Origin: Spirochaetes bacterium GWF1_51_8
GTDB lineage: Bacteria; Spirochaetota; Brevinematia; Brevinematales; GWF1-51-8
Assembly (NCBI GenBank): GCA_001829415.1
Contig: MIBE01000070.1
Location: forward strand, 45,041-109,040
DNA: 64,000 nt
Direction: 5' to 3'
Positions 4,555 through 51,130 of the stretch are shown one piece after another; position 1 is the first letter of the stretch, and every line of letters begins with the position of its first letter. Both the position numbers and the translations under genes were made by a program. The notes beneath the pieces are model-generated. The model saw nothing but the letters and a program-made list of their open reading frames with translations, did no database searches and was not told the origin of the DNA.

Positions 4555-5192
4555 TTATTCTTTCTTATATATTTTACTACAAAACAATTAAAAGGCAAGA
4601 AAATAGAAATGAATATTGATCGGGGGAATGGGTTTCTACCCCTCGATGCTTTGACTTCGTAGGGCGCATGGCATTAAGCGGTCTCCCCTTCCGCGAGAAT
4701 ATGTGACGAATAAGGGATTCTTTTCTATACCCCAATAGCGCGCGGATTTCACGGATTTTATAGATTGACACGGATCGGAGCCGGCCGCGCACGGTGACCG
4801 CCGGGAAATACAAATGCAGTTCGCACGGAGCACCCCTCGATTTACTCGGGGCAGGCGCGGAGAAATAAGCAGGGATGTTTATTCAAGAGAGATCATCATA
4901 CTCCCATAGCTATACTTGCCATCATATGTTATGAAATTGACATTAAAACCACGATGCCGTGAAAGTAAAACGGTATCTTTCATCAGATGTTCATGGTATA
5001 ACCTCTGCGTACTCTATGTGAAATTTTCTATTCGTCGATAGTCTCAACTCGCGTTCATTCGCGGATCGATCAATCGTGATTTATCCCGTTTCGCATCCGT
5101 TAGAACCGTGGAACTATCGCCGCGTCGGCCGAGGGATGCCGCGGAATACACAGTGAAAAGGTGTTTTGAAATCTAAAATGAATCAGAAAATA
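4555..5192. repeat. Intergenic patchwork of short repeat modules (no credible CDS)
   Basis: 4729-4748 is the perfect reverse complement of 23434-23453. 4817-4860 matches 23096-23139 at 41/44. 5004-5070 matches 23183-23260 at about 80%. Confidence 0.75.
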
Positions 5193-5940: not shown

Positions 5941-6184
5941 ACAGCCTCCTCAAATATTTTAAATACCTTTCCGAATGATTCTATCCTCCTATTTTTCAAA
6001 TATTTAATGAAGTTTTACCCTGTCAACAATAGGCGAATACCGTATTTTTGTCAATGTTTTACACTACTTTTTACATACTTTTTACGATACGTTGAGCAAT
6101 ATTTTCAACATAGCCCGGAAGGACATTGTACGGATTCGCGCGGAATACACGGATACTGCGGATTTGCCCGGATACGCCTCGAAA

Positions 6185-6248
6185 AGCTCATGCTTCGGCA
6201 CGCTCATGCTTCGGCAAGCTCATGCTTCGGCAAGCTCAGCATGACGGA
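6185..6248. repeat. 16-nt tandem repeat (3 copies plus 1 degenerate)
   Basis: Units are agctcatgcttcggca / cgctcatgcttcggca / agctcatgcttcggca / agctcagcatgacgga. It runs into a 'catcccgagcacttgtcccg' module. Confidence 0.85.
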
Positions 6249-6431
6249 ATGTCATCCCGAGCACTTGTCCCGCGTTTCTCCCGGCATGCCGAGGGGTTCC
6301 CCGCCGAGCCCTCTGTGCGGAATTGCCTAATAAGCGCCCATCCGTGTAAATCGGTACACAGCTTCGTGGTGCCCGGCTTCTGGGTATAATAAAACTAAAC
6401 GGTCATCGAGCGCGGCCGAGATGCCCGCCAT

Positions 6432-10165: not shown

Positions 10166-11059
10166 ATGGCTTCTAAAAGAGAAGGCTTGGATTTCCCCAA
10201 GCGCATCCAAAAGGTATCCCCCGGTCTCCTGAAGGACCTGATAGAAATTGCCGTGAGGGAAGACCTCGACGGTATCGGCGACATCACCACGCAGGCGCTT
10301 TTTAAAAATATCTCCGAGGATACCCGTTCCGCGAGAGTGACCGCAAAAGAACGCGGCGTAGTCTGCGGTATCGATGTCGCTCTTGCGGTCTATTCGATTG
10401 TCTCGAATCAATCCGGGGTGGAGATCATGCCGAGGAAGCTGGACGGCGAAATAGCCGAAAAAGGCGAAACTATCCTGACATTGAAGGGACGGCCTTCGGG
10501 GATCACCACCGGCGAACGGATCGCCCTCAACTTCATGGGGATCCTTTCCGGGGTCGCCACGAAAACCCGCCGTTATGCCGATCTCATCTCAGGTTCTTCC
10601 ACCCGTCTTTTAGATACGCGCAAGACTCTTCCCGGGATGCGCGAATTGCAGAAGTACGCGGTCGCGACGGGCGGCGGCTACAATCACCGGATGGGGTTGT
10701 ACGATATGATCCTGATCAAGGACAATCATATCTCCGCGGTCAGGTCGCTGACAAAAGCGGTAGAGCTCGCGAAGGCGGCCTATCCGTTCGTGCCGATAGA
10801 GGTCGAGACTACGACGATCGAACAGGTCGCCGAGGCGGTGGAGACTGAAGCGGATATCCTGATGCTCGATAATATGAACAACGACCTTGTCCGCGAAGCC
10901 CTTCGGATTATCGGCGGATCGAAGTATATCGAGGTTTCCGGGAATGTGGACGAGAAACGGCTTGTGGAACTTGCCGGGATCGGGGCGGATTTCGTTTCGA
11001 TGGGCGAACTGACCCATACGGTCAAGCCGCTGGATTTGTCGCTGCTGTTCGACGAATAG
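10166..11059 (+). CDS. nadC: Nicotinate-nucleotide pyrophosphorylase (quinolinate phosphoribosyltransferase)
   Basis: 'LDTRKTLPGMRELQKYAVATGGGYNHRMGLYDMILIKDNHI' is the NadC core. Confidence 0.9.
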   Translation: MASKREGLDFPKRIQKVSPGLLKDLIEIAVREDLDGIGDITTQALFKNISEDTRSARVTAKERGVVCGIDVALAVYSIVSNQSGVEIMPRKLDGEIAEKGETILTLKGRPSGITTGERIALNFMGILSGVATKTRRYADLISGSSTRLLDTRKTLPGMRELQKYAVATGGGYNHRMGLYDMILIKDNHISAVRSLTKAVELAKAAYPFVPIEVETTTIEQVAEAVETEADILMLDNMNNDLVREALRIIGGSKYIEVSGNVDEKRLVELAGIGADFVSMGELTHTVKPLDLSLLFDE

Positions 11060-11084: not shown

Positions 11085-11272
11085 AAGGGGTTGTCCCAAA
11101 AGTACGGAAAAAGTAGAAAAGTCTGTCACTGCGAGGAACGAAGTAATGAAGCAGTCTATGTAACTGTTTATCAGTTAATAATATAGATTGCTTCGGCTAT
11201 GGTTCGGCAAGCTCACCATGACGCCTCGCAATGACAAATATTCTCTATAGTACCCTTTTGGGACAGCCCCTT
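11085..11272. repeat. Composite palindromic element, family R1, copy 1 (fills the nadC / rod-binding convergent spacer)
   Basis: Outer IR: aaggggttgtcccaaaagtac (11085-11105) with gtacccttttgggacagcccctt (11250-11272). Inner IRs: gtcactgcgagg/cctcgcaatgac, and gaagcagtctat (11148-11159) with atagattgcttc (11183-11194). Confidence 0.85.
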
Positions 11273-11279
11273 ACTTATT

Positions 11280-11624
11280 TCATAGGAGGTTATCGGAGTT
11301 TTGGGTGCGCTTGAGGTAATCGTAGATGAATTTCCCGATCCCGAGCGATCCGTCGTAGGCGGTCTGACGGGCATACTCGGTGTAGAGCATGTCCTCGAAA
11401 ATTTCCTGCTTGAGTCCGCCGTCGAGCCATTCGTCCTTGGGGACGGTGCTCCGCATCGATTTATACATTTCCTGAATGAAGAGCGCGGAGAATTCGTCGG
11501 AAACCTCGTGCAGTTGTTTGTCTTCCATTGAAGCGTACTTTGTTTCTTTCATCGCGGTCGCCTTCGAAAGGTTGAGCTTTTCCTGAGCGGAATAAAGGTA
11601 TTCGCTGCCGAGTTTGATATCCAT
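11280..11624 (-). CDS. Flagellar rod-binding (FlgJ N-terminal-like) protein
   Basis: 114 aa. 'FSALFIQEMYKSMRSTVPKDEWLDGGLKQEIFEDMLYTEYA' matches the Rod_binding domain. Confidence 0.75.
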   Translation of the reverse strand: MDIKLGSEYLYSAQEKLNLSKATAMKETKYASMEDKQLHEVSDEFSALFIQEMYKSMRSTVPKDEWLDGGLKQEIFEDMLYTEYARQTAYDGSLGIGKFIYDYLKRTQNSDNLL

Positions 11625-11683
11625 GTTTCCTCCGGGTGTCTATCCGAAATATCGGAAGAATCCGGAAAACGATAAGCGGATAC

Positions 11684-14455
11684 CTAAAGATTGAAGAGTA
11701 TTTTCACAGTCGTGCCCCTGCCGATCCGGCTGTCGATCTCGATAGACGCCTCGAGCATTTTCACGAGCTGGTAGACGATATAGAGCCCGAGTCCGGTCGC
11801 CTGCTGGGGGTCTTTGGTAGTGAAAAACGGGTCGAAGATGCGCGGCTTGTTCTCGTCGGGAATCCCGCACCCGTCGTCGCTGATATCGATCCTGACATGG
11901 CCGCTGTCGGGTCGGAATACTTTTATCTGGATCGCCCCTTTCTCGTCCACTGCGTCGACACTGTTTTTTATCAGGTTATAGATGATTTCTTCGATAGTCA
12001 CTTCGTCCGTCACGAGGATACCCGCGAGAGGATCGACATCGATCTTCAGGGAGATTGACGGTGATTTCTTCCGCGTCATGCTGCCGAAGACGGGATCGAG
12101 GGTTTTGAAGAAGTCCCTGAGGTCGATAGGTTTCTTGGTGATCTTCTCGTGGCGGGCGAAAATATGCATCCTATTGGTGATTTTTATTCCGCGGTCTACG
12201 GCCTGCGCGATATTCTCGAGGTCGTTCTTCGCCCGCATGTTTTCAGTATCGTCCATGCTGTAAAGGATCAGTTCGTAATACCCTTTGATGATCGCGAAGA
12301 TATTGTTGTACTCATGCGAGATACCCGCCACCAGATTTCTCATCGTGTCCATCTTCTGCTGCTGGATCAGCAATGCGGTCATCTTATCCTTCTGCTGTTC
12401 CATCTCGATCTGCGCGTTAATATCCATGATATGCGAGAGGACGGCGGGCTTCTGGTTGTACTCGACAATCGACTCGTAGACCGAGAACCAGCACGGCTTC
12501 CGGTCTTTCCTGACACCCTTATAGGAATACTGGATGCCGGTGTTTTCGTCTATCCTCCGGGCGGTATTGGGATCGGGATGCACTTTGATAGTGGAATCCT
12601 CCGCGGCTAAGACCGCCGGGTCGAGACCGTTGTCGATATCTTCCTGGGTGTATCCGGTGATATCCATGAACTTCCGGTTCGCGTAGACGATCCGGTTTTC
12701 CTGCATCAGATAAATACCGGTGAGAGCGTGCTCGATAACCGCGCGATAGGTCGTCTCTGAGTTTTGGAGCTGACGGAAAAGCATTTCGGTCTCGATAAAT
12801 TGGGCGAGGGCGGATGCGATGTTGTTCAGGGTAAATTCAGTCAGCGCGGTATTCATCGCTAACGGGATACCGATACCGATAAACCCGTAATTTTGCTTGG
12901 ATGTGGTGATCCTGAAAAAGAGATTGCATTGATCCTTATCGCAGTTTCTATCGATAGCCTCGTTTGAATCGAAGTAGAACTTTTTCGAAACGTCGCCCTG
13001 CCCGGAAGGAAGCCTGCCGTACTTATAGTAGCCCTCGAAGCCGCGCAGGTAGACATACAGCCAGACCGCTGAGAAGTAACGTTCGATCAGCCTGCCGATC
13101 AGGTCGATGGAGTTCTGGCGGAAATCCTCGCGGATCAGGAGCTTGAAGATCGAATTGAGAAATTCGGTCGAATGGATCCCCTGAAGGATGCCCATGATGT
13201 TTTTGATAACCATGATATAGAGCGGTTTGTCGTCCTGGATATGGAGCGAGATACTGATGTTCGCGGGAAAGAGCGAACTGTCCTTTCGGCGGCAGTCGCT
13301 ATTAAATCCGTGACTGATTTCGGCGGATACGGCGCTCAGTTCCGCATCCAGCACTTCATGTTCGGCGAAAAGCGTTTTCGGGGTGATGGCGTTCAGTTCC
13401 TCAGACGTGTATCCGAACTCAATCAGCGTCTCATGGTTGTAATGGATGAGCCGGTCGCCGGAAAAGACTACTAACGGAACCCCTACGGCGTCGAAGATTT
13501 TCCGGTTGTAGCTGTTCAGGGAATTGAGCTGACGGTTTTTCTGAGTCTGAAAAAACAAATAAATTAGCGCAAATAGTATAACAAGGGAAAATGCTGATGT
13601 TGCTATCACCGATGCGGAAAGGTTATGAAGATAGAGTTTACTTAATTGGGATGCGGTTAAGGAAGCATCGAAAAGGGTCGTGATATACTGATTTTGGGTA
13701 TTAAAGAAAAGCCAACCCAAAACAAAAGAACCCACAAGGCAGAGGATACCCAGATTAATAAGTATTATCTGCCGACGCTCGAAGATATCTTTGTCGTTGA
13801 TGAAGAAAAGAATAAACGATGAATAAAACATACCAAGATGAAGATTAAAGAGAAAAAAGTGAAAGTCGGATTTTTCGACTAAGGTGAGGTAATAAGTATA
13901 AAAAATCGCACTGAATAACAAGCAAAAGATGATGATATAAGCGATACGTGTAATTTTTAATCTATATTTCATATAAGAGAATAATGAAACAAGTGTTCCC
14001 GCGAAAATCACCGCGATAAAAATAACATATATAAAATAAAGAATTCTAATCTGAAAAATTGCGCTCGTAATCGCAGATAATAAAGCCGCGATATAGACAA
14101 AATAGATTGCGTTACCTTTTAGAACGGTTTTTTTTATCATTCGAGAGACAAAAAACATACTCACGAGAAATGTTGAAGTAAACATCAGGTTTAAAGAAGG
14201 AATTTGATATCGAAACTCGATATAATATAAGACCTGAGCTACTGCAAATAAGAGTGAAGTAATGAAAAAATTATGAAGAAGCTTTTTTTTAGGAAAAACT
14301 TTCACTAAGAAAAAAACCACTATGCTGAGAAAAATACATAACACTACCGAAGCAAATACCGTATAATCGGCGAGAGGGGAATGGACACCCGCAGGTTGAA
14401 GAAACTCGGTGTTATAGAGTAGTTTGCTTAGGGAATTTGTCATATCGTATCGCAT
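11684..14455 (-). CDS. Sensor histidine kinase: polytopic membrane module, PAS regions, HisKA and HATPase
   Basis: 923 aa. H-box 'GISHEYNNIF', N-box 'IYNLIKNSVDAV', G-boxes 'DDGCGIP' and 'GLGLYIV'. The N-terminal ~300 aa are multi-TM. Confidence 0.9.
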   Translation of the reverse strand: MRYDMTNSLSKLLYNTEFLQPAGVHSPLADYTVFASVVLCIFLSIVVFFLVKVFPKKKLLHNFFITSLLFAVAQVLYYIEFRYQIPSLNLMFTSTFLVSMFFVSRMIKKTVLKGNAIYFVYIAALLSAITSAIFQIRILYFIYVIFIAVIFAGTLVSLFSYMKYRLKITRIAYIIIFCLLFSAIFYTYYLTLVEKSDFHFFLFNLHLGMFYSSFILFFINDKDIFERRQIILINLGILCLVGSFVLGWLFFNTQNQYITTLFDASLTASQLSKLYLHNLSASVIATSAFSLVILFALIYLFFQTQKNRQLNSLNSYNRKIFDAVGVPLVVFSGDRLIHYNHETLIEFGYTSEELNAITPKTLFAEHEVLDAELSAVSAEISHGFNSDCRRKDSSLFPANISISLHIQDDKPLYIMVIKNIMGILQGIHSTEFLNSIFKLLIREDFRQNSIDLIGRLIERYFSAVWLYVYLRGFEGYYKYGRLPSGQGDVSKKFYFDSNEAIDRNCDKDQCNLFFRITTSKQNYGFIGIGIPLAMNTALTEFTLNNIASALAQFIETEMLFRQLQNSETTYRAVIEHALTGIYLMQENRIVYANRKFMDITGYTQEDIDNGLDPAVLAAEDSTIKVHPDPNTARRIDENTGIQYSYKGVRKDRKPCWFSVYESIVEYNQKPAVLSHIMDINAQIEMEQQKDKMTALLIQQQKMDTMRNLVAGISHEYNNIFAIIKGYYELILYSMDDTENMRAKNDLENIAQAVDRGIKITNRMHIFARHEKITKKPIDLRDFFKTLDPVFGSMTRKKSPSISLKIDVDPLAGILVTDEVTIEEIIYNLIKNSVDAVDEKGAIQIKVFRPDSGHVRIDISDDGCGIPDENKPRIFDPFFTTKDPQQATGLGLYIVYQLVKMLEASIEIDSRIGRGTTVKILFNL

Positions 14456-14473
14456 CCCTCTCTGTACACTCTT

Positions 14474-14502
14474 ATTCTATCGGAATGAGGTGTTTTGGTC
14501 AA
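14474..14502 (-). promoter_or_regulatory. sigma70-type promoter of the histidine kinase gene
   Basis: On the minus strand: TTGACC (14502-14497), 17 nt, TAGAAT (14479-14474). Confidence 0.55.
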
Positions 14503-14519
14503 ACAATCGGCGTTTTTTC

Positions 14520-14548
14520 TTGACGGCGGGGAATATACCCACTAAATT
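14520..14548 (+). promoter_or_regulatory. sigma70-type promoter of hydE
   Basis: TTGACG (14520-14525), 17 nt, TAAATT (14543-14548). A GGAG RBS lies 5 nt before the ATG at 14566. Confidence 0.55.
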
Positions 14549-14565
14549 AATAGGCTGGAGTTTAC

Positions 14566-15648
14566 ATGGACTGGAAAAACCTTACCTTTAACGATCTTCC
14601 CCGGATACTGCGCTCTGACGATGACGAAACGCTCCGTTCACTCCTGGACCATGCTTATAGTGTCAAGATGGAGACGGTGGGGAAAAACGTCTATTTCCGG
14701 GGGCTGATCGAGTATAGCAACCTCTGCGCGAAAAACTGTTATTACTGCGGGATACGCCGCGGAAACCGTCACGCCCGCCGTTACACAATGACGCGCGAGG
14801 AGACGGTGGACGCCGGATTATTCGCGTTCAAGCAGAACATGGGCTCGATCGTGCTTCAGTCCGGCGAACGTTGCGACCGGGAGTTTACCGAGACAATCGA
14901 GGGGATCATCGCCGAACTTAAGGAGCGGACGGGCGGCAAGCTCGGGATCACGCTATCGCTGGGCGAACAGACCCGTGAAACCTACCGAAGGTGGTACGGC
15001 GCCGGGGCGCACCGTTACCTTCTCAGGATCGAGGCGTCCAACCCCGAGCTATATAGGAAACTCCATCCGGCGGGGCACGATTTCGATCTGCGGCGGAACT
15101 GCCTGATCGGCCTCAAGGAAATCGGTTACCAGACCGGGACGGGTGTGATGATCGGATTGCCGTTCCAGACCGGGGACGATCTCGTCTCCGACCTGGAGTT
15201 TTTCCGTGAGATGGATATCGATATGATCGGGATGGGGCCGTATATTGTCCACAACGAGACACCGCTTGCGGCGCACGCGCCGGATTCCCCGGAACTCAGG
15301 CGGAAGCATTACCATGATACGCTGAAGATGATCGCGTTCGCGAGGATCCTGCTCCGCGACGTAAATATCGCGGCGACCACGGCGATGCAGGTGCTCGACC
15401 CGTTCGGACGGGAACGCGCGTTGAAGGCCGGGGCGAATATCATCATGCCGAATATCACCCCGATGAAGTACCGTTCGGACTACGCGCTCTACGAGGGGAA
15501 GCCGTGCGTGGACGAGGAGCCCGATCAATGCTTAGGCTGTCTCACCGCGAGGATCAGGATGATCGGCGAGGAACCGGGCTTGGGGCAATGGGGCGATTCG
15601 CTCCATTTCAGGAAGAACGCGGATTCCCCGATTGAGACAGAAGGGTGA
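14566..15648 (+). CDS. hydE: [FeFe]-hydrogenase H-cluster radical SAM maturase HydE
   Basis: 'CAKNCYYCGIRRGN' CX3CX2C motif. 'SLGEQTRETYRRWYGAGAHRYLLRIEASNPELYRKLHP' and 'GTGVMIGLPFQTGDDLVSDLEFFREMDIDMIGMGPYI' closely follow the HydE family pattern as I recall it from Thermotoga HydE. Confidence 0.85.
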   Translation: MDWKNLTFNDLPRILRSDDDETLRSLLDHAYSVKMETVGKNVYFRGLIEYSNLCAKNCYYCGIRRGNRHARRYTMTREETVDAGLFAFKQNMGSIVLQSGERCDREFTETIEGIIAELKERTGGKLGITLSLGEQTRETYRRWYGAGAHRYLLRIEASNPELYRKLHPAGHDFDLRRNCLIGLKEIGYQTGTGVMIGLPFQTGDDLVSDLEFFREMDIDMIGMGPYIVHNETPLAAHAPDSPELRRKHYHDTLKMIAFARILLRDVNIAATTAMQVLDPFGRERALKAGANIIMPNITPMKYRSDYALYEGKPCVDEEPDQCLGCLTARIRMIGEEPGLGQWGDSLHFRKNADSPIETEG

Positions 15649-16360
15649 GGGACTTGAGTTCTCGACGGTAATGGCTCCTGAAAATCCTGCCGAACAAGTC
15701 GATCAGTTCGTTACGCACAGAAACGGAAATCTCCCTGCCGTCCCAGAAACTCATCCCGTCCGCGTTTTCGCAGTCGTAGATAAACCTGAGAGTGCCGTTA
15801 CCCAAACGGTGCTTTTCCGATGTCAATTCGCTCAGCTCTCCGGTGAAATTGCCCGAGTAATAGGGAAAAATTCCTTCCGCTATCAGCGCGGTCACGATGA
15901 AATAGAACGCGTACTTCTCGAAACGGGTATCTGCCGCGAGGCGTTTCATGAGTTCCGGAAGGAGCGGGTAGAGGGCGAACGGACTGTCGCCGGAGAGGGC
16001 GGTATCGAGGATTTCGAAAACGAGATAGAGATACGCGAGCCGTTTGAGCTCGCCGCGGATACCGTCGAAACTGTCGCATAACGATATCTCGCGTACCGAG
16101 GGGAGCTGGTTTTCCTGTGGGATTTTCGGACGTACCGCGATCCCGTTCACGAGGTTGCCGGCGAGCACGGCGCTTTTACGCCTGCTGTTCTGGCGCGAGG
16201 AGCCGAATACCGATAGCCGGATTTTACCGTGGTTCTCGTCGATCAATGTGAGGATGCGGTTGCCGTCGCCGAATGGGTCGGTCTTGAGGATGATACCCTG
16301 AAAACGGATCAGGCGCGACGAATGAAATTCTTCGTTGGTTTCGCTATTCCTTGGGTTCAT
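15608..16360 (-). CDS. recO: DNA repair protein RecO
   Basis: Start is set at the internal ATG ('MNPRNSETNEEFHSSRLIRFQGIILKTDPFGDGNRILTLIDENHGKIRLSVFG'), giving a RecO-type N-terminal OB-fold. Overlaps the upstream gene by 17 nt and the hydE 3' end by 41 nt (convergent). Confidence 0.8.
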   Translation of the reverse strand: MNPRNSETNEEFHSSRLIRFQGIILKTDPFGDGNRILTLIDENHGKIRLSVFGSSRQNSRRKSAVLAGNLVNGIAVRPKIPQENQLPSVREISLCDSFDGIRGELKRLAYLYLVFEILDTALSGDSPFALYPLLPELMKRLAADTRFEKYAFYFIVTALIAEGIFPYYSGNFTGELSELTSEKHRLGNGTLRFIYDCENADGMSFWDGREISVSVRNELIDLFGRIFRSHYRRELKSLTLLSQSGNPRSS

Positions 16361-17246
16361 TGGAAAGCTTTTCCAGAACGGTATAGCCCCGGAAACGGCC
16401 GCGCTTATCGAACAATTCTTTGACCACGGCGAAATTTCCCGAGCCGACGTAATATATCTTCCTGCCCTTCTGCTGAAGGTCGGGTTTTTGCTTCTGGAAC
16501 TCGCCCACAATACAGTCGAAATGCGCGTATTGTCCGGTAGGTTCGTGCTTCAAGGCGTAGATCAAGCCCTCGATCGGTTTCTCGCAGAGCGGGCAGATAT
16601 GCTCTTCTTTTTCAAGTTCCTGTATCTTCTTGCTGGCTTCGAGCCCGTTCAGGCCGAGCTGGTCTTTGATCTCGTCGGAAAGATTGACCGGCGGGTAGAT
16701 TTTCCTCGGCGGTTCCTTACGGGTCAGGTCGGTGCGGCCGTCGCGGTTCTGCGGGGGACGGAAGCCTCCGCCCTGCTGCTGCGGGCGGTTCTGGCCCTGG
16801 GGCTGTCCCTGTTGGGGCCTGTTCTGGTTCTGTCCCTGCGGACGAGGGCCTTGCCCTTGCGGGCGGTTCTGGCTCTGGGGCTGTCCCTGCTGGGGTCTGT
16901 TCTGGTTCTGTCCCTGCGGACGAGGGCCTTGCCCTTGCGGGCGGTTCTGGCTCTGGGGCTGTCCCTGTTGGGGCCTGTTCTGGTTCTGCCCCTGCGGACG
17001 AGGGCCTTGCCCTTGCGGGCGGTTCTGGCTCTGGGGCTGTCCCTGCTGAGGCCTGTTCTGGTTCTGTCCCTGCGGGCGGCTTTGACCCTGAGTCTGAGGC
17101 TGTGCCGGGGGTTGTGCCTGTCCCTGCTGAGGCGGCTGGGGCGCGCCTGTTTCGTCTATCGGCCCGTCCTGTCCGTCGGGGCGGTGATGGTAATGCGGCT
17201 TGCCCTGCGGCGAAAGAGGCCGGTGTCTTTTTTTATTAAACGACAT
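16344..17246 (-). CDS. Q/G/P/N-rich repeat protein with a C-terminal CxxC...HxxC domain, function unknown
   Basis: 300 aa, with an AGGAG RBS and a consensus promoter on the minus strand. Tandem 26-aa units 'PQGQNQNRPQQGQPQSQNRPQGQGPR'. C-terminal 'HICPLCEKPIEG...YAHFDCIVGEF'. Confidence 0.7.
   Translation of the reverse strand: MSFNKKRHRPLSPQGKPHYHHRPDGQDGPIDETGAPQPPQQGQAQPPAQPQTQGQSRPQGQNQNRPQQGQPQSQNRPQGQGPRPQGQNQNRPQQGQPQSQNRPQGQGPRPQGQNQNRPQQGQPQSQNRPQGQGPRPQGQNQNRPQQGQPQGQNRPQQQGGGFRPPQNRDGRTDLTRKEPPRKIYPPVNLSDEIKDQLGLNGLEASKKIQELEKEEHICPLCEKPIEGLIYALKHEPTGQYAHFDCIVGEFQKQKPDLQQKGRKIYYVGSGNFAVVKELFDKRGRFRGYTVLEKLSNEPKE
16781..17075. repeat. 78-bp tandem repeat, about 3.8 copies, inside the Q/G/P-rich gene
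   Basis: Units start at 16781, 16859, 16937 and 17015, with 2-3 differences per unit. The fourth unit diverges after about 17073. Confidence 0.9.
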
Positions 17247-17266
17247 TGTTTTGCTCCTGATGTACT

Positions 17267-17295
17267 ATTATAATAGCTTTCGTCGATTTTTGCAA
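17267..17295 (-). promoter_or_regulatory. sigma70-type promoter of the Q/G/P-rich gene / recO unit
   Basis: On the minus strand: TTGCAA (17295-17290), 17 nt, TATAAT (17272-17267). Confidence 0.6.
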
Positions 17296-17342
17296 ATCGC
17301 CCGCGGTCAAGTTGCCCGACTTATTTCCGGGAACGCTCTTAT

Positions 17343-17371
17343 TTGACAAAAAAGAGGTAAGGGCTTAAATT
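17343..17371 (+). promoter_or_regulatory. sigma70-type promoter of the DUF4349-like gene
   Basis: TTGACA (17343-17348), 17 nt, TAAATT (17366-17371). Sits back to back with the divergent promoter at 17267-17295. Confidence 0.6.
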
Positions 17372-17393
17372 GAATGCCGCTAAGGAGGACTTC

Positions 17394-18320
17394 ATGAAAG
17401 CAAAAATTATCAAGGGTCTCATCTATCTTGCGATAGGTTTCGCGGCTTTATTTGTTATCCGTTTGATTTACGGATTCGCGACCGGTGAAAAAACCGGGGT
17501 GCAGAGTTCCCAGTACTATCTCCCCGCGGGCTATGCCAATAACGAGATGACGATTCAGTCGGGGTCTTCCGGATCGAGTTTCTATATGGAGAAGAACTTC
17601 GCCGGCGAGAAGATGATGAAAAATCAGACCGATAATGCCGGGAACACCGTACAGGTGGAGATCGAGCAGAAATATGAAATGATCGCCAATATGGAACTGA
17701 AGAGCTCCGATTTCCCGGCGGACGAGAAGAAAATGAGAGACTTGTCGGCGTCCAACGGCGCGATCATTCAGTACGAGAGTATGCAGGGCTTGCCGGGTTC
17801 CCGCCAGCTTCAGCTTGTGATCGGCGTACCGCCGGAAAAGTTCGATTACATCGTGAAGCAGTTCCAGGGTATCGGCAAGGTGAAAAACCTTTCGATCAAT
17901 AAGTACGACAAGACGAGCGAGTATAACGACCTCATGGTGCAGAAACAGTCGCTCGAAACGATGCGCGAATCGCTTGTGGCGCTCAAGTACCAGAAGGGAA
18001 GCATTAAGGAAATGATCGAGCTCCAGCAACAGATTCTCGAGGTCGAAAAATCGATCCGCACTTTGGGTGTCAGCATCGGCGAATTCGCCGAGGAGAACGA
18101 GTTCTGCACCGTCGAAGTGACGTTAAGCGAAGGCAGCGGCGTATTCCGTATCATTTTCGCGGTCGTGCTCTTGTCGCTGGAATGGGCATTCTGGGTATAC
18201 TTCGGCATCCTCGGATTAGGCGCGGTCGCCCTTTTCGTGGTGTTCATCATAGTCAAGATCATGGAGAAGACCGGTTTCCTTTTCAAGCTGAGCGGGGCGA
18301 AAACCGAAGAAAAAAAGTAG
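17394..18320 (+). CDS. DUF4349-like membrane-anchored coiled-coil protein
   Basis: The start follows an AAGGAGG RBS. N-terminal TM, central coiled coil 'EYNDLMVQKQSLETMRESLVALKYQKGSIKEMIELQQQILEVEKSI', and two C-terminal TM helices. Confidence 0.65.
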   Translation: MKAKIIKGLIYLAIGFAALFVIRLIYGFATGEKTGVQSSQYYLPAGYANNEMTIQSGSSGSSFYMEKNFAGEKMMKNQTDNAGNTVQVEIEQKYEMIANMELKSSDFPADEKKMRDLSASNGAIIQYESMQGLPGSRQLQLVIGVPPEKFDYIVKQFQGIGKVKNLSINKYDKTSEYNDLMVQKQSLETMRESLVALKYQKGSIKEMIELQQQILEVEKSIRTLGVSIGEFAEENEFCTVEVTLSEGSGVFRIIFAVVLLSLEWAFWVYFGILGLGAVALFVVFIIVKIMEKTGFLFKLSGAKTEEKK

Positions 18321-18404
18321 CCGGAAGAAGCCCAATCTAACTCATTCGACGGTACTCATTTAAGAATTAAAGGCGAAATACCGATTCATATATAAGGAAA
18401 ACCT

Positions 18405-19616
18405 ATGGATCGGTTCGAAGAAGACCTTTTTCAGCTTAAAAAACGGAAAAATCCGTTATGGACGCAGACATCGGAGACGGAAAAGCAGAATCTTCCGCTC
18501 AGGAAGATCATCCTGAACGCCGTGCTTGTTTTATGCGCGGCGGGCGTCCTGATTGTGAACGGCATGATTATCCTGAACGCGCTCGACGGCGATAGCCCGT
18601 CGAAGAAATACGCTTACGGCGATAAGTTCGACCCGTACACGAACCAGACGATCGACGATATTTTCAGCGGGATCAACGGGCGTATCCCGATCCTGATGTA
18701 CCATAACTTCGTGACCCCGGCGAATACTCTCCAGATCGGGATTATTACTCCCGGGAAGAAGAGGTACTATATTACATCCGACGAGTTCCGGCAGCAGCTC
18801 GAACTGCTGTATAAGGGCAATTTCAGGAACATATCGCTGGACGAGTACCTGTCGCTGATGAAGGGCGAGAAGAAGGCGCTCGACCGTCTGCCGCCGGACT
18901 GCAAGCTCTACGTGCTGACATTCGACGACGCCACCTACGGGCAGTTCGATTTTACCGGGACGGACGTTAACGGGAACCCGAAGATCGATCCCGACTCGGC
19001 GGTGGGGATCATGATCGAGTTTTCCAAGAAGCACCCGGAGTTCAAGCTGAACGCGGCATTCAGTATCGATTTCGAGAACACGCCGTTCCTCCAGCACGAG
19101 TATGTCGAGAAGAAGCTCAACCTGCTGCTCGATTATGGTTTCGAAATCGTGAACCATACCGCGAACCACGAGTACCTCGCGACGTTTTTCCCCGGCCAGA
19201 CAGACAAGATCAACAAGGAGATCGGGAAAGCGATGGAGCTTCTCGAGTCCTATCTCGGGTACAGGGCGAGGACGGTCGATAAGATATGTTATCCCGGCGG
19301 GTACGACAATCCCGCGATGAACGCGTACTTGAAGAAGATCAAATATAACGGCAAGACTTATGAGTTCAGCGCCGCGCTCGACGCGGAAGGACTTCAGGCG
19401 TACAACCCCAACGATTACCGTTTCGACCCGTTCGATATCGCCCGGATCGAGATCAATCCCGGGGATTTCGATATCTTCGTCCTGAACGCCCCGGGCTTGT
19501 TCGTGACACCGAGCGTGCTCGGGCAGAAGAACGGCAAGACTACGGTAAAAGAGAAATCGTTCGAACTGATCCCGGAAGAAGCCGCCGGGAGTAATATGAC
19601 TGAACAGTTGCAGTAA
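18405..19616 (+). CDS. Polysaccharide deacetylase (NodB-homology) with N-terminal membrane anchor
   Basis: 'LTFDDATYGQF' (TFDD motif) and 'HTANHEYL' (HxxxH motif). Confidence 0.8.
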   Translation: MDRFEEDLFQLKKRKNPLWTQTSETEKQNLPLRKIILNAVLVLCAAGVLIVNGMIILNALDGDSPSKKYAYGDKFDPYTNQTIDDIFSGINGRIPILMYHNFVTPANTLQIGIITPGKKRYYITSDEFRQQLELLYKGNFRNISLDEYLSLMKGEKKALDRLPPDCKLYVLTFDDATYGQFDFTGTDVNGNPKIDPDSAVGIMIEFSKKHPEFKLNAAFSIDFENTPFLQHEYVEKKLNLLLDYGFEIVNHTANHEYLATFFPGQTDKINKEIGKAMELLESYLGYRARTVDKICYPGGYDNPAMNAYLKKIKYNGKTYEFSAALDAEGLQAYNPNDYRFDPFDIARIEINPGDFDIFVLNAPGLFVTPSVLGQKNGKTTVKEKSFELIPEEAAGSNMTEQLQ

Positions 19617-19641
19617 GAATTCAATCCATGAGGCGGGGTAG

Positions 19642-20886
19642 ATGAACGGACAGGAAAACAAATTTAAGATCGTGCGCTTCCAAAAGGGCAGCTTTCCTAT
19701 TATCGAGAACCAATCCACCGACGACTATTTCTTTATTATCAAACAGGGACAGGTGCGGCAGTTTACCAACAAACTCGTGATCGGAGCGCAGAACGAGCTG
19801 ATTCTCAAGGAAGGCGACTTCTTCGGGGTGATCTCGTGTATGGCGAAACGCCCCCGGCTCCATTCGATCGAAATGCTCGAAGATACCCTCGCGATCATGG
19901 TCAGGCGCGAGGATTTCAACTACCTGATCGAGAAGAACGCGCCTATCGCGATGAAGATACTCCGTTACTTCAGCAAACAGCTCCGTTATTTCAACGCCAT
20001 TCTCACCGAACTCTCGCTGAAGTCTTACACGGCGGAAGACCCGATCCATCTTTTCGACCTCGGCGAATACTACAGTTCGCTCAAAATGCAGTTCAATCAC
20101 GCGGCTTACGCGTTCATCCAGTATGTCAAACACAACCCCGAGGGGAAGTACGTCCCTATCGCGAAGTCCAAGCTCTCGAAGATTGTCGCGAGCTACAAGG
20201 ACAAGCTCCGGCTCGAACCGCGCCGCGAGGAAAACTATTACTATATCTACCAGGACTCGCAGATCATCTTTCTCGAGCACGAGCTCGGGAATATGCTGTA
20301 TATCATCCAGGAAGGCGAGGTGAAGATCACCAAGGTCGAGCAGCAGCAGGAAGTGCTTTTGAACATCCTGAAACCCGGCGATATATTCGGCGAAATGGCG
20401 ATTCTCGAGAACAAGCCCCGCAACGCTACGGCCGTGGCGTCGGGAACGGTAAAAGTGATGGCGGTATCGCGCGAGAACTTCCCGGCGATTGTCGCCGCGC
20501 ATCCTCAGATCGCGACTAAGATCATCACCCTTCTCTCCGAACGGATCTGGTTTATCCACAGGCATATCATGAATATGCTGATCGCCGATCCGGAAACCCG
20601 TCTCTACGACGCGTTCAATATCCTGATCCTGAAGGGCAGGGTAAATATCGCGCAGGGCGGAAGTTATGTTTTCGACGTGGGTTTCGACGACATGCTGAAA
20701 TTCACCGGGCTGGAAAAAAACGCCAACGGTTCCGGCACATTGCGGAACATTCTCGACACCGATAAATCGTTCGGGATGAAGGACGGCAAGATTGTCTGCC
20801 GCGATCTGAAAAAGCTCGAACAGAAGATGAACATTATCCGGCGGAATCTCGAGGTGATGAATAAGTCCAAGAACTCGCTGTTATAG
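19642..20886 (+). CDS. Protein with two cyclic-nucleotide-binding domains
   Basis: 'GDFFGVISCMAKRPRLHSIEM' and 'GDIFGEMAILENKPRNATAVA' are phosphate-binding-cassette-like motifs. The C-terminal ~130 aa are unassigned. Confidence 0.8.
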   Translation: MNGQENKFKIVRFQKGSFPIIENQSTDDYFFIIKQGQVRQFTNKLVIGAQNELILKEGDFFGVISCMAKRPRLHSIEMLEDTLAIMVRREDFNYLIEKNAPIAMKILRYFSKQLRYFNAILTELSLKSYTAEDPIHLFDLGEYYSSLKMQFNHAAYAFIQYVKHNPEGKYVPIAKSKLSKIVASYKDKLRLEPRREENYYYIYQDSQIIFLEHELGNMLYIIQEGEVKITKVEQQQEVLLNILKPGDIFGEMAILENKPRNATAVASGTVKVMAVSRENFPAIVAAHPQIATKIITLLSERIWFIHRHIMNMLIADPETRLYDAFNILILKGRVNIAQGGSYVFDVGFDDMLKFTGLEKNANGSGTLRNILDTDKSFGMKDGKIVCRDLKKLEQKMNIIRRNLEVMNKSKNSLL

Positions 20887-20894
20887 CGGGGGTG

Positions 20895-21275
20895 GTGACA
20901 AACTCATTTTGTCATTGTGAGGCTGTCATGGTGAGCACTTGTCCCGCCTTCCACGGCGGGATGCCGAACCACAGCCGAAGCAATCTATCTCATTATCAAA
21001 TATGATTTTATACCGGCTGCTTTTCCTCTCCGTGTCACGCAGTGCCGGAAAACTCTTCATTCTGTGAGTTCGTAAATACTCCACGAAGGGATTGTTGACG
21101 AAGTTGAAATTTTCGCTGTTTTTTGTCACGCGAGCCTGCCTTCTACCGAAGGTAGACAGGGAGCAAAGCGACCTGTCTCCTTCTCCTGAGAAGGAGAAGG
21201 CAGGCAAAGCAGTCTGTATAATTCATATTCCAGTAATTAAATAGATTGCTTCGGCATATGCCTCGCAATGACAAT
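20895..21275. repeat. Family R1 copy 2 plus an inverted R1 half-copy and nested hairpins
   Basis: 20911-20988 ('gtcattgtgagg...gccgaagcaatctat') is the inverted form of the right arm at 21241-21274. The left arm 21123-21135 carries an inserted multi-hairpin, cctgccttct (21135-21144) with agaaggcagg (21195-21204). Confidence 0.8.
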
Positions 21276-21309
21276 GCAAGTTCGTCAACTAGCCCTTAAG
21301 GGAACTTTG

Positions 21310-22488: not shown

Positions 22489-23530
22489 CGGCTTCTCCTT
22501 TTTAATAATATATATCTTAACCTGTATCGGCGCGGGTATCAAGATTTTCGGGTATCATATAGTACGGGGATGGTCCGGGCCGGTAACCTCATAAGGGATT
22601 TTGCGTCTCGGCGGTTGTTCAAATCTGCTCAACCTACAGTGAGGCTGTTGAATTATTCGTGTGCCTTCGTGTTCATTCGTGGATGCATTGCCCTAGTGCT
22701 TCTTGCGACTTCATATATTTGCGGTCATGCCTTTTTCTCGGTGTCCTTGGTGTTTTCTGTGGCAAGCCTTCGACATCCCGTGGAGGATCACGGGACGAGC
22801 GTTCAGGTTGACGTTTTTACTTCCGCGCTAATCCGTTCAATCAGCGTGAATCGGTGATTAATTGGGATAATATAATTGCCTTATATAATACACTATGAGG
22901 CCGCAGATACTTCGACTTCGCTCAGTACAAGTAAAGCGGATACTCTCCGCATTTTCCTCTGCGCCTCCGAGTCTCTGCGGTAGCTCTTCCGGCTGTTCAG
23001 ACAGAAAAATACAAAAACCGTACCGCAGAGACGCAAAGACGCAGAGACGTCCCCGCTGCGTGAGGACAAGCAAAGACCGCGGAGAAAAAAAATACAGTTC
23101 GCGCGGAGTACCCCTCGATTTACTCGGGGCAGGCACGGTGATGCAAAGCAGACTCTGTTGAAAGAGAGACCTAACTCCTTCTCTCTGCGTACTCTGTGTG
23201 AAATCTTCGATTTGGCGCGGGTCTCAATTCGTGTGCATTCGTGTTTATTCGCGGATAGATTTCCTTCCCGCCGGGGACGCTTGCCCATCGGTTGTGCGGG
23301 GTGTCGAAGGTGTTCTCACGGAGTATAACAACTCATTCGCTCTCTATGTCTCTTCGTCTTTGCGGTCAATTCCCGCAGTGCCTTTATGTTTTTACGTTTG
23401 TTCAAATCCGTGATAATCCGTTGAATCGGCGAGAATCCGCGCGCTATTGGGGTTAAAATTGATACCCCAATTTAACACGGATTGCACGGATTACGAAGGT
23501 TTACACGGATATGAATATTACGCAGGATAT
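22489..23530. repeat. About 1.0 kb of intergenic patchwork of repeat modules (no credible CDS)
   Basis: Modules are shared with 4555-5235 and 50556-51130; see the findings for coordinates and identities. ORFs here lack an RBS and known motifs. Confidence 0.75.
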
Positions 23531-33699: not shown

Positions 33700-33835
33700 A
33701 AGAGGGCCGTCCTACAAAGGTGAGATTGTCACTGCGGGAAGTGAAACGGCGAAGCAGTCGATTTTCAAAACAATGATTTTATAGATTGCTTCGCAAATCC
33801 TGATGGATAAGCCCGCAATGACTTAACAGATGTAA
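33700..33835. repeat. Family R1 copy 3, between flgL and fliW
   Basis: ttgtcactgcggg (33726-33738), gaagcagtcgat (33751-33762), an AT-rich loop, atagattgcttc (33781-33792) and cccgcaatgac (33812-33822). Confidence 0.85.
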
Positions 33836-37297: not shown

Positions 37298-37458
37298 AGT
37301 TCCTATCGGCTCATTCTTCATCATGCTTCGACTATGCTCATCCCTCGACATCCCGGTGGGGAAGCCGGGACAAGAGCTCGGGATGACATTTTCTCAATGC
37401 TGCGCTCCGGATGACTTTTCTAAAACCCGTGGTGATGAAAAGTGTCACAATATTTCTA

Positions 37459-37509
37459 CCGAACGTCATGCCGAACGTCATACCGAACGTCATAGTGAGC
37501 CTGCCGAAC
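37459..37509. repeat. 12-nt tandem repeat (3 copies) plus a related tail
   Basis: ccgaacgtcatg / ccgaacgtcata / ccgaacgtcata, then gtgagcctgccgaac. The reverse complement resembles 'ttcggcaRgctcaNcatgacg' at 6224-6247 and 11203-11224. Confidence 0.85.
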
Positions 37510-37552
37510 TATAATGAACTAAGGCAATCCTATTCCGCATTCCCGCCAACCT

Positions 37553-50555: not shown

Positions 50556-51130
50556 TTTCTTCTCCGGCGGGCGGTACAACGGTTAATTCCCGCGCGAAAT
50601 AGTTTGAACGATTTTTAGGGATTCGTCAACGTATCGCGGCTAAGACACGTTCTATTGGGATTGAATTTTGACCCCAATTCTCACGGATTTCACAGATTAT
50701 ACAGATTATCACGGATAGAGCCGGAGAATCACCGCAAAGACGCGAAGGCGCAGAGAGACCCAGAGAGAAAAGGAAAAGCCGTCACCCTTCGGCATCCCGT
50801 GGAGGAACACGGGACGAGTGCTCAGGGTGACAGCTTTTTTACACGCTGTTCCTCCCGCGCACTTTGAAGCGCGTTTTACTTCCGGGAAATCCAACCAAGG
50901 GCGTAAGTCCGGTTACAAAGTTTGAAACCTATGAATTCTTCATATCGTGTTAAGCCCGACTTGGATTTTCCGGCTTTTCCCCTAAGCTTCATCTTGCGCG
51001 GCATACGCTTGTCCTGAGCGAAGTCGAAGGGTTCTTTTCTTCTTTCTTTCCTATGCGGCCTGTCCCTGAGGGATTTCCTGAGGGGGAAAGAAAGAAGATT
51101 CTTCCCGAATATCCCGGAAAATAGCAAAAT
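50556..51130. repeat. Intergenic patchwork of repeat modules (no credible CDS)
   Basis: 50652-50689 resembles 23444-23483. 50731-50759 resembles 23032-23058. 50788-50831 resembles 22768-22812. 51008-51029 is the reverse complement of 22910-22931 (21/22). 14-bp perfect IR 51048-51061 / 51095-51108. Confidence 0.75.

Follow-up and report, generated by a model that had tools for sequence, protein, structure and literature searches.

We analysed a window of 64,000 nucleotides (nt) from the genome of Spirochaetes bacterium GWF1_51_8 (contig MIBE01000070.1 of assembly GCA_001829415.1, positions 45,041 to 109,040 of the forward strand), whose proteins are identical to those of this bacterium and whose closest relatives are annotated as Brevinematales. 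A composite palindromic element in it, here termed R1, belongs as a new member to an already known class of genomic repeats and is not a structured RNA of a new kind. The arms of R1 belong to the CGTC/TGTC-tagged superfamily of repeats that resemble repetitive extragenic palindromic (REP) sequences. By analogy with the hairpins that are cut by the Ssn nucleases of Neisseria, R1 is probably a gene-less inverted pair of Ssn-type target hairpins, which would act as single-stranded DNA. This placement draws on the anatomy of the hairpin unit, the covariation of its stem, its wide distribution, its linkage to nuclease genes and the gain and loss of copies at orthologous sites, all of which were observed here.

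Four copies of R1 in the window

An earlier note, made from the letters of the window alone, had described R1 as a family of three copies in the same orientation. Inspection of the sequence recovers the motifs of all three where that note had placed them, and the family is real and non-random; pattern searches and inverted-repeat recovery across the window however bring the number to four, the additional copy lying inverted beside copy 2. Three pattern searches exclude a chance origin: GAAGCARTC-N15-40-GATTGCTTC has two matches in the window against 0.00 expected in shuffles, ATAGATTGCTTCG is exact in all four copies and has eight matches at <=2 mismatches against 2.0 expected, and GTCAYNNNGAG...GAANNNRTC has six matches against 0.14 expected. 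The copies and their parts are as follows, the arms being named C/G or T/A after the bases at the two positions at which left and right arms consistently differ:

11085-11272, + strand: R1 copy 1, the whole composite of outer stem, linkers, C/G arm, AT-rich spacer and T/A arm
11085-11105 / 11250-11272: outer stem of copy 1
11125-11156, + strand: left arm of copy 1, C/G unit, GTC-ACTGC-GAG..GAA-GCAGT-C
11186-11235, - strand: right arm of copy 1, T/A unit, GTC-ATTGC-GAG..GAA-GCAAT-C
11198-11222: a unit of a second type nested in the apical loop of the T/A arm of copy 1, GTC-ATGGT-GAGCTTGCCGA-ACCAT
20889-21082, - strand: R1 copy 4, in inverted orientation and abutting copy 2, missed by the earlier note
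20889-20906 / 21065-21082: outer inverted repeat of copy 4, 18 nt
20911-20985: T/A arm of copy 4, carrying two nested hairpins
about 21015-21046: C/G arm of copy 4, degraded
21086-21297, + strand: R1 copy 2, with the outer inverted repeat GGGATTGTTGACGAAG / TTCGTCAACTAGCCC
21125-21214, + strand: left arm of copy 2, with a 1-nt deletion and a long nested palindrome
21244-21272, - strand: right arm of copy 2
33728-33822, + strand: core of R1 copy 3, with no clear outer repeat (33700-33835 in the earlier note)
33728-33759, + strand: C/G arm of copy 3
33784-33822, - strand: T/A arm of copy 3

The outer stem that had been reported for copy 1 is present, a mechanical inverted-repeat search pairing 11085-11102 with 11255-11272 at 94% complementarity, but it is not unique to this copy, given that copy 4 has its own (18 nt) and so does copy 2 (21 nt, 21086-21106 / 21277-21297, 86%). 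The C/G unit of copy 1 equals the unit GTCACTGCGAGGAACGAAGCAGTC of Bacteroidota with an 8-nt insert, and the left arm of copy 2 lacks one T and thus reads GTCAC-GCGAG. A literature search with sequence strings of the repeat returned only coincidental primer matches.

Each arm is a hairpin unit with a covarying stem

Read on its own strand, an R1 arm consists of the tag (T/C)GTC, then A-N4, GAG, a variable insert, (C)GAA, N4', T and C. The constant left/right asymmetry (C against T and G against A) is as the earlier note described it, whereas its interpretation as a G-U pair and a C-A mismatch within one long hairpin fails: because N4/N4' is CTGC/GCAG in the left arm and TTGC/GCAA in the right arm, the two "asymmetric" positions pair with each other inside each arm. 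Units that flank the nuclease genes described below bear this out, with 118 T..A, 8 C..G and no mixed combinations (Fisher p = 8e-13), while over the whole of these loci the tally is 151 T..A, 9 C..G and 1 T..G (n=161). A structural scan further recovered 12 units in the window against 0.48 in shuffles, and these include seven stems (CTGC, TTGC, TGGT, TGCT, TCCC, TAGT and CCCT), every one of them self-complementary. Likewise, in 362 kb of Brevinematales DNA 50 of 81 GTCA-N4-GAG heads are followed within 75 nt by GA(A)-rc(N4)-T, the controls with scrambled partners yielding 0, 6 and 0. All recognisable arms in the window read GTC-A....T-C, with the tag being TGTC in six of the seven and CGTC in most copies from other phyla.

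The units range from 23 to 79 nt in length; their basal stem of 5 bp leads into a conserved, purine-rich internal loop, GAG/(C)GAA, and the apical insert is free, while the stem A-N4/N4'-T would appear to need only to pair. Between the conserved blocks the two arms have inserts that are unrelated and do not complement each other, which indicates that the long hairpin is a by-product of having two units in inverted orientation. A paired change in copy 3, which the earlier note had offered as compensatory, does involve the loss of one A and one T, but it is a single case with no parallel in approximately 40 copies of the Brevinematales type. Outside the window the commonest short form of the unit is GTCATTGCGAGCG-N-AGCGAAGCAATC, which contains GCGNAGC, a motif that forms an extraordinarily stable DNA mini-hairpin (PMC13037366); we infer that this stability is relevant to the R1-type unit. 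Resemblances to hammerhead ribozymes, k-turns and attC sites were considered and dropped, the order of blocks being wrong for a hammerhead and Rfam being silent.

Linkage to genes for small GIY-YIG nucleases

A locus from a member of the Chitinophagaceae (L172), picked by the R1 pattern alone, encodes a 104-aa GIY-YIG protein (PF01541, E = 2.5e-13) and has an R1-type pair on each side of this gene. The gene came to light only through a listing of the open reading frames (ORFs) between units, regular expressions for GIY-YIG motifs and for those of REP-associated tyrosine transposases (RAYTs) having given no matches. We then turned to 80 metagenome loci of Bacteroidota type, selected solely by homology to the L172 nuclease, i.e. 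an approximately 100-aa single-domain GIY-YIG protein; the linkage described here was observed in these loci and not in the lineage of the window. A unit lies within 350 nt of the nuclease gene in 67 of the 80, and on both sides of it in 42, with unit density being 3.56 per kb near the gene versus 0.17 per kb further away, a 21-fold enrichment. Of the 161 units in these loci, 130 carry the tag CGTC and 158 have a C directly behind the stem. Bracketing with the tags outward is the most frequent though not the sole arrangement (15 of 34 loci), and in L214 and L199 the order is C/G unit (+), gene, T/A unit (-), so that these loci share R1's polarity but have a gene where R1 has its spacer. Domain searches with the nuclease recovered only Pfam GIY-YIG, with no match in NCBIfam, and among solved chains the UPF0213 protein 1zg2 comes closest (E = 1e-4).

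Two further observations concern this gene family. L089 holds another small GIY-YIG gene (10480-10960), which may be frameshifted and is flanked not by the R1-type unit but by a different hairpin with a CGTC tag, CGTCAGCCCGGGCTTGACCCGGGC; this fits with each nuclease having its own repeat. Moreover, many proteins of the small GIY-YIG family (P0079-P0198) are known only from contigs of 0.5-2.5 kb, as would fit with assemblies breaking at the flanking repeats.

Distribution, genomic context and the possibility of a role as RNA

A scan for the core of the pair, with one genome taken per species, returned 61 loci, of which about 27 come from Spirochaetes bacterium GWF1_49_6 and about nine from Brevinematales DeMMO6_14. 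The C/G plus T/A pair is present in Brevinematales, Bacteroidota, Dehalococcoidales, Alphaproteobacteria and Omnitrophota. Among the matches listed, the T/A unit alone is found in >120 IMG/VR contigs, for a chance expectation that we estimate at <1, and the inverted pairs in such contigs comprise 20 with tags outward and none with tags inward. In four IMG/VR contigs (L039, L043, L061 and L116), which may be related phages, the same ORF of approximately 110-135 aa recurs between T/A units and combines a Cys-rich N terminus with a C-terminal HTH_23 domain (E = 1.7e-10). Separately, a contig assigned to a 'Candidatus Nomurabacteria' metagenome-assembled genome (L140, LCGX01000010) carries an R1 composite of the Brevinematales type, with the same spacer length, a nested unit and an outer repeat, and may have been mis-binned.

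Genomic context bears directly on the alternative that R1 is selected mainly as RNA, with the long hairpin functioning as a bidirectional intrinsic terminator or a 3'-end stabiliser. All four copies in the window lie directly 3' of genes, and of 43 sites that could be classified 29 are in tandem and 10 in convergent spacers, as against 4 in divergent ones. Copy 1 sits in the convergent nadC / rod-binding spacer, 26 nt from one stop codon and 8 nt from the other, and it is the only large hairpin there, a simple terminator scan finding nothing else, which upholds what the earlier note had said of its position and of its being the sole candidate terminator. When both of its strands are folded, as that note had proposed, they prove very stable (-81.4 kcal/mol, z = -9.2 for the + strand; -77.3 kcal/mol, z = -8.3 for the - strand), and in two relatives a plain terminator hairpin is found near the place of copy 3. 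This alternative is nevertheless unlikely in our judgement. The covariation favours the arm-internal stems over the long hairpin, the two inserts do not complement each other, and orientation with respect to the flanking genes is random in our own tally (14 same, 14 opposite). The U-tracts after the outer stem are weak, copy 3 is followed downstream by a small hairpin and T-run of its own, and termination does not explain the presence of units on both sides of a nuclease gene. With gathering thresholds Rfam matched nothing in the entire window, and at E <=5 over 5500-34500 it had no match on any R1 copy. A consensus terminator scan found no site in or beside the R1 copies, the composite hairpin being far larger than that scan allows and the T-tracts weak. 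Compared with rho-independent terminators, including bidirectional ones, R1 shares the GC-containing hairpin directly after convergent stops and the A-rich and T-rich flanks, but it differs in being approximately 190 nt long, multi-layered, repeated at unrelated loci and variably present, with weak U-tracts. On the other hand, a subsidiary role is plausible: since the copies stand just 3' of genes and have a very stable RNA fold, they probably have the side effect of terminating transcripts or stabilising their 3' ends, a role that position and stability suggest and that covariation and orientation leave unsupported.

Layers, nesting and turnover in Brevinematales

In the genome under study the pair contains no gene and is wrapped in additional palindromic layers. 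The spacer of the pair is AT-rich and measures 26 nt in most Brevinematales copies, and 21 nt in copy 3 of the window. At least three unrelated outer palindromic layers (GGGCTTGTTGACGAA..., GGGGCTGTCCCAAAAG... and GGGCACTTCTAAAAACTC...) surround the core pair, the second of these being found in copy 1 and in L179, a locus of GWF1_49_6. The apical loops of units in turn host second-type units and further hairpins, and whole composites are often found inside the loop of what appears to be a pre-existing terminator hairpin.

The copies also come and go. Copy 1 and L179 lie at non-orthologous sites; aligned over 300 columns, unrelated flanks included, they have 83% identity, and the similarity is bounded by 11085 and 11272. 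In two relatives (L190 and L191) the flagellin-fliW spacer orthologous to that of copy 3 lacks the element, and copy 1 is missing from the nadC / rod-binding spacer of a relative with 87% identity (L196). L191 for its part has an R1 copy that is missing both from L190 and from the window, where it has no match, and this difference can therefore be polarised as a gain. A tblastx comparison of the window with the 61 genome loci matched only the repeat itself, so that those loci supplied no orthologous empty sites, and a 923-aa histidine kinase used as query for orthologous metagenome loci found no relatives. A 146-nt length difference between two assemblies of a GWF1_49_6 locus was discarded as an insertion, being a run of N.

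Two observations at these sites stand apart from the above. In L196 the same nadC / rod-binding spacer holds a different palindromic element (590-790), with the ends GGGCACTTCTAA... / ...TTTTTGAACCGCCC, and an outer layer of its kind wraps R1 pairs in GWF1_49_6 (L127, L151 and L169); convergent spacers thus look like shared landing sites. Further, the gene block from the rod-binding gene to the cNMP-binding gene (11280-20886) is inverted relative to CsgG when compared with GWF1_49_6 (L194), and its ends coincide with copy 1 and with copies 4/2. We rejected an R1-mediated inversion here: in L196, the 87% relative, the nadC / rod-binding junction already exists with no R1 in it, and hence the inversion cannot be credited to the repeats.

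The outer layers raise the question of whether the Brevinematales composite is a conventional miniature inverted-repeat transposable element, or MITE, where a DDE transposase recognises the outer repeat (GGGCTTGTTGACGAA...) and the hairpin pair is a passenger. Outer inverted repeats of 18-21 nt, a total size of 170-230 bp, short flanking direct repeats at several copies and the fact that GGGCTTGTTGACGAA... accompanies the pair in most copies from GWF1_49_6 and DeMMO6_14, and rarely occurs alone, are all in keeping with such an element. However, in our own reading of the flanks these direct repeats vary from ~3 to ~15 nt with no fixed length and are absent at some copies; a constant target-site duplication for the outer repeat was looked for and not found. 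The same core pair is found within at least three outer layers that are unrelated to each other, the pair exists in other phyla without this outer repeat, and no longer ORF-bearing element with these ends was seen in ~400 kb, which together make this a quite improbable account. The window and ~360 kb of related loci likewise contain no RAYT-like ORF and no transposase domain by a crude motif scan and Pfam lists. The concern of the earlier note that R1 might turn out to be a fragment of a known insertion sequence (IS) or MITE repeat applies in spirit, in that the arms are the repeats that bracket a gene cassette in other phyla.

We likewise give little credence to the view that the R1 copies are decaying relics with no present activity, tolerated in 3' intergenic DNA. 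It is true that damage is seen in two of the window's four C/G arms, that copy 3 is without an outer repeat and that no cognate enzyme turned up in the sampled DNA. Yet ATAGATTGCTTCG is exact in four of four copies, lineage-specific gains are seen, and copy 1 and L179 retain their 83% identity, unrelated flanks included, though their hosts share no other DNA-level similarity in the sampled loci; the two host genomes are 76% identical in a conserved protein.

Comparison with known repeat systems and a proposed mechanism

Di Nocera and co-workers described in 2013 a superfamily of CGTC-tagged REPs, with TGTC and CCTC as variants of the tag, a stem opened by an A-T pair, a short tail that begins with C, and an organisation mostly as inverted dimers, often heterodimers, between convergent or co-directional genes of hosts that include Spirochaetes, Bacteroidetes, Chlorobi and Bradyrhizobium (PMC3733652). 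R1 shares with these repeats, among them dRS3 of Neisseria and RPE-4/-6 of Rickettsia, the unpaired CGTC/TGTC tag, the A-T start of the stem, the C-initial tail, the predominance of inverted dimers, often of two slightly different units, the location in convergent or co-directional spacers and, as far as the sampled DNA shows, the lack of association with a transposase. There are also differences: the four described families have a stem of 8-9 bp and a loop of 4-5 nt, neither of which the R1 unit has, the tail is CCA in them as opposed to CTA/CTC in R1 units, and the extra outer palindromic layers and nested units set the Brevinematales copies apart.

The second point of comparison is provided by the Neisseria hairpin NTS, CGTCATTCCCGCG..GCGGGAATC, which together with the related SRM hairpins flanks genes for Ssn, a single-domain GIY-YIG nuclease of ~94 aa (Chenal 2025, PMC11893778). 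Ssn enzymes act on the hairpin solely when it is single-stranded DNA, to which they bind and which they cut just upstream of the tag, with the three bases upstream of the palindrome governing cleavage and the C just after it governing binding (PMC11893778). The GTC immediately before the palindrome and the C immediately after it that make up these determinants are both present in the window arms and in the nuclease loci. As with R1 units, NTS/SRM are oriented hairpins with CGTC just upstream of a palindrome that begins with A and with a C just after it; they occur in tens to hundreds of copies that are mostly intergenic, and like R1-type units they flank, on one or both sides, the gene of a single-domain GIY-YIG nuclease of ~100 aa. 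In contrast to the continuous 8-bp stem and 4-5-nt loop of NTS, the R1 unit has a stem of only 5 bp, above which come the conserved internal loop GAG/(C)GAA and an insert that is free and spans 2-60 nt, and unlike NTS/SRM the R1 repeats mostly form inverted pairs with a fixed polarity of C/G on the left and T/A on the right. Also unlike the NTS/Ssn system, the sampled DNA of the window lineage yielded no ssn gene, and the R1-linked nuclease is a predicted enzyme.

A comparable architecture is seen in REPINs and BIMEs with their RAYTs (Bertels & Rainey 2011; Ton-Hoang 2012; Quentin 2018), which resemble R1 in being inverted doublets of a short palindrome with a spacer that could form one long hairpin, and R1-type units in forming mosaics with other motifs and in flanking a single-copy enzyme gene. 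That R1 is itself a REPIN, i.e. an inverted REP doublet mobilised by a RAYT of the HUH/Y1 class, is very improbable despite this shared plan of many intergenic copies of two inverted palindromes around a short spacer, and despite the existence of REP pairs built from two slightly different units, as the tag is (C/T)GTC and not GT[AG]G, Di Nocera et al. saw no tyrosine transposase flanked by CGTC repeats (PMC3733652), no RAYT-like ORF emerged from a crude motif scan covering 1.78 Mb of fetched loci, Pfam lists show no Y1_Tnp domain among the window genes, and the gene actually found between units is that of a GIY-YIG nuclease rather than an HUH/Y1 transposase.

Returning to R1 as a pair of Ssn-type target hairpins, we envisage that the Brevinematales arms would act at the level of DNA, folding into hairpins when replication or DNA uptake leaves the DNA single-stranded and serving as sites for a cognate Ssn-type nuclease. 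The R1 pair would then be a miniature derivative of the hairpin-gene-hairpin cassette, and its copies might spread via nuclease- or repair-linked copying, with hairpins and terminators that already exist receiving them in their loops. Flanking repeats that vary, and the nesting of loop in loop, are more in keeping with a process of the repair or conversion type than with a transposase of fixed stagger. As a bolder and decidedly tentative version of this idea, gene-less pairs may be non-autonomous miniatures of a hairpin-ssn-hairpin cassette that Ssn-type nucleases spread by break-and-copy, with insertions aimed at apical loops; the units inside units, pairs inside outer palindromes and composites inside terminator loops all point in this direction.

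Several results weigh against this reading of R1. The published SRM pattern, HGTCWYN(0-2)YYVSBRHN(0-5)WNVSBRGN(0-2)RNCYNB, matches NTS and has no match in the canonical 26- and 32-nt units or in the window. With standard DNA parameters the isolated arms fold at only -2.3 to -6 kcal/mol with z about 0, and in such a model the long hairpin would dominate in a pair unless protein or sheared G-A pairs stabilise the arms. We accordingly rejected thermodynamics as support for the arm hairpins, which are no more stable than shuffles, and the predicted arm hairpin is supported by covariation and not by energy. A six-frame ORF profile search of the window and ~360 kb of sampled Brevinematales DNA, approximately a tenth of a genome if this is estimated at a few Mb, matched only UvrC and no small GIY-YIG gene, and the cognate enzyme in Brevinematales is thus unproven. 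At the level of protein sequence the R1-linked nuclease family can be placed only as Pfam GIY-YIG, while Ssn is cd10448. Finally, no copying mechanism has been given for these repeats even in Neisseria (PMC3733652, PMC11893778).

Second-type units and other repeats of the window

Units of the second type also occur in the window outside the R1 copies:

6221-6298: head-to-head (tags-inward) pair of second-type units with the stems ATGCT/AGCAT (- strand) and ATCCC/GGGGT (+ strand)
37339-37513: cluster of second-type units at 37339-37387 (- strand) and 37489-37513 (+ strand), with a 12-nt tandem array at 37457-37494
50783-50831, - strand: second-type unit GTC-ACCCT-GAGC...CCGA-AGGGT-GAC, DNA fold -16.4 kcal/mol, z = -5.5

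A related copy of the last of these lies at 22767-22812. Parts of second-type units also make up tandem arrays, namely AAGCTCATGCTTCGGC repeated 3.4 times with a period of 16 at 6184-6238, into which the ATGCT/AGCAT unit of the first pair continues, and TACCGAACGTCA repeated 3.2 times with a period of 12 at 37457-37494; both look like products of slippage inside hairpin units.

The window contains other repeats as well. A 78-nt tandem repeat (16780-17075; 3.8 copies, 95% match) lies within a 300-aa ORF that has no Pfam match. Two long intergenic regions (4802-5061 and 23080-23241) have in common two blocks of ~60 nt with 81-85% identity, one of which includes the hairpin CCCCTCGATTTACTCGGGG. 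At 22965-23050 the palindrome GAGTCTCTGCGGTAGC...GTACCGCAGAGACGC is followed by CGCAGAGACG repeats, with a weak, chance-level match to an Rfam microRNA family, and seems to represent a different repeat family.

Conclusions

What appeared to be a candidate structured RNA thus becomes a recognisable hairpin repeat of the CGTC-tagged, Ssn-related kind. R1 adds to this class a type of unit overlooked by the published search pattern, a left/right pair of fixed order around the nuclease gene, and an occurrence in Brevinematales, with the pair set within palindromic layers. For annotation, such repeats would account for many spurious short ORFs in metagenome assemblies and for the breaks between contigs. 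The arms of R1 and the nucleases of the L172/L214 type provide concrete substrates and enzymes with which the multiplication of these repeats can be tested. If Ssn-driven spread is true, it would constitute a class of mobile DNA powered by a GIY-YIG single-stranded DNase, active across phyla and persisting in lineages such as Brevinematales.

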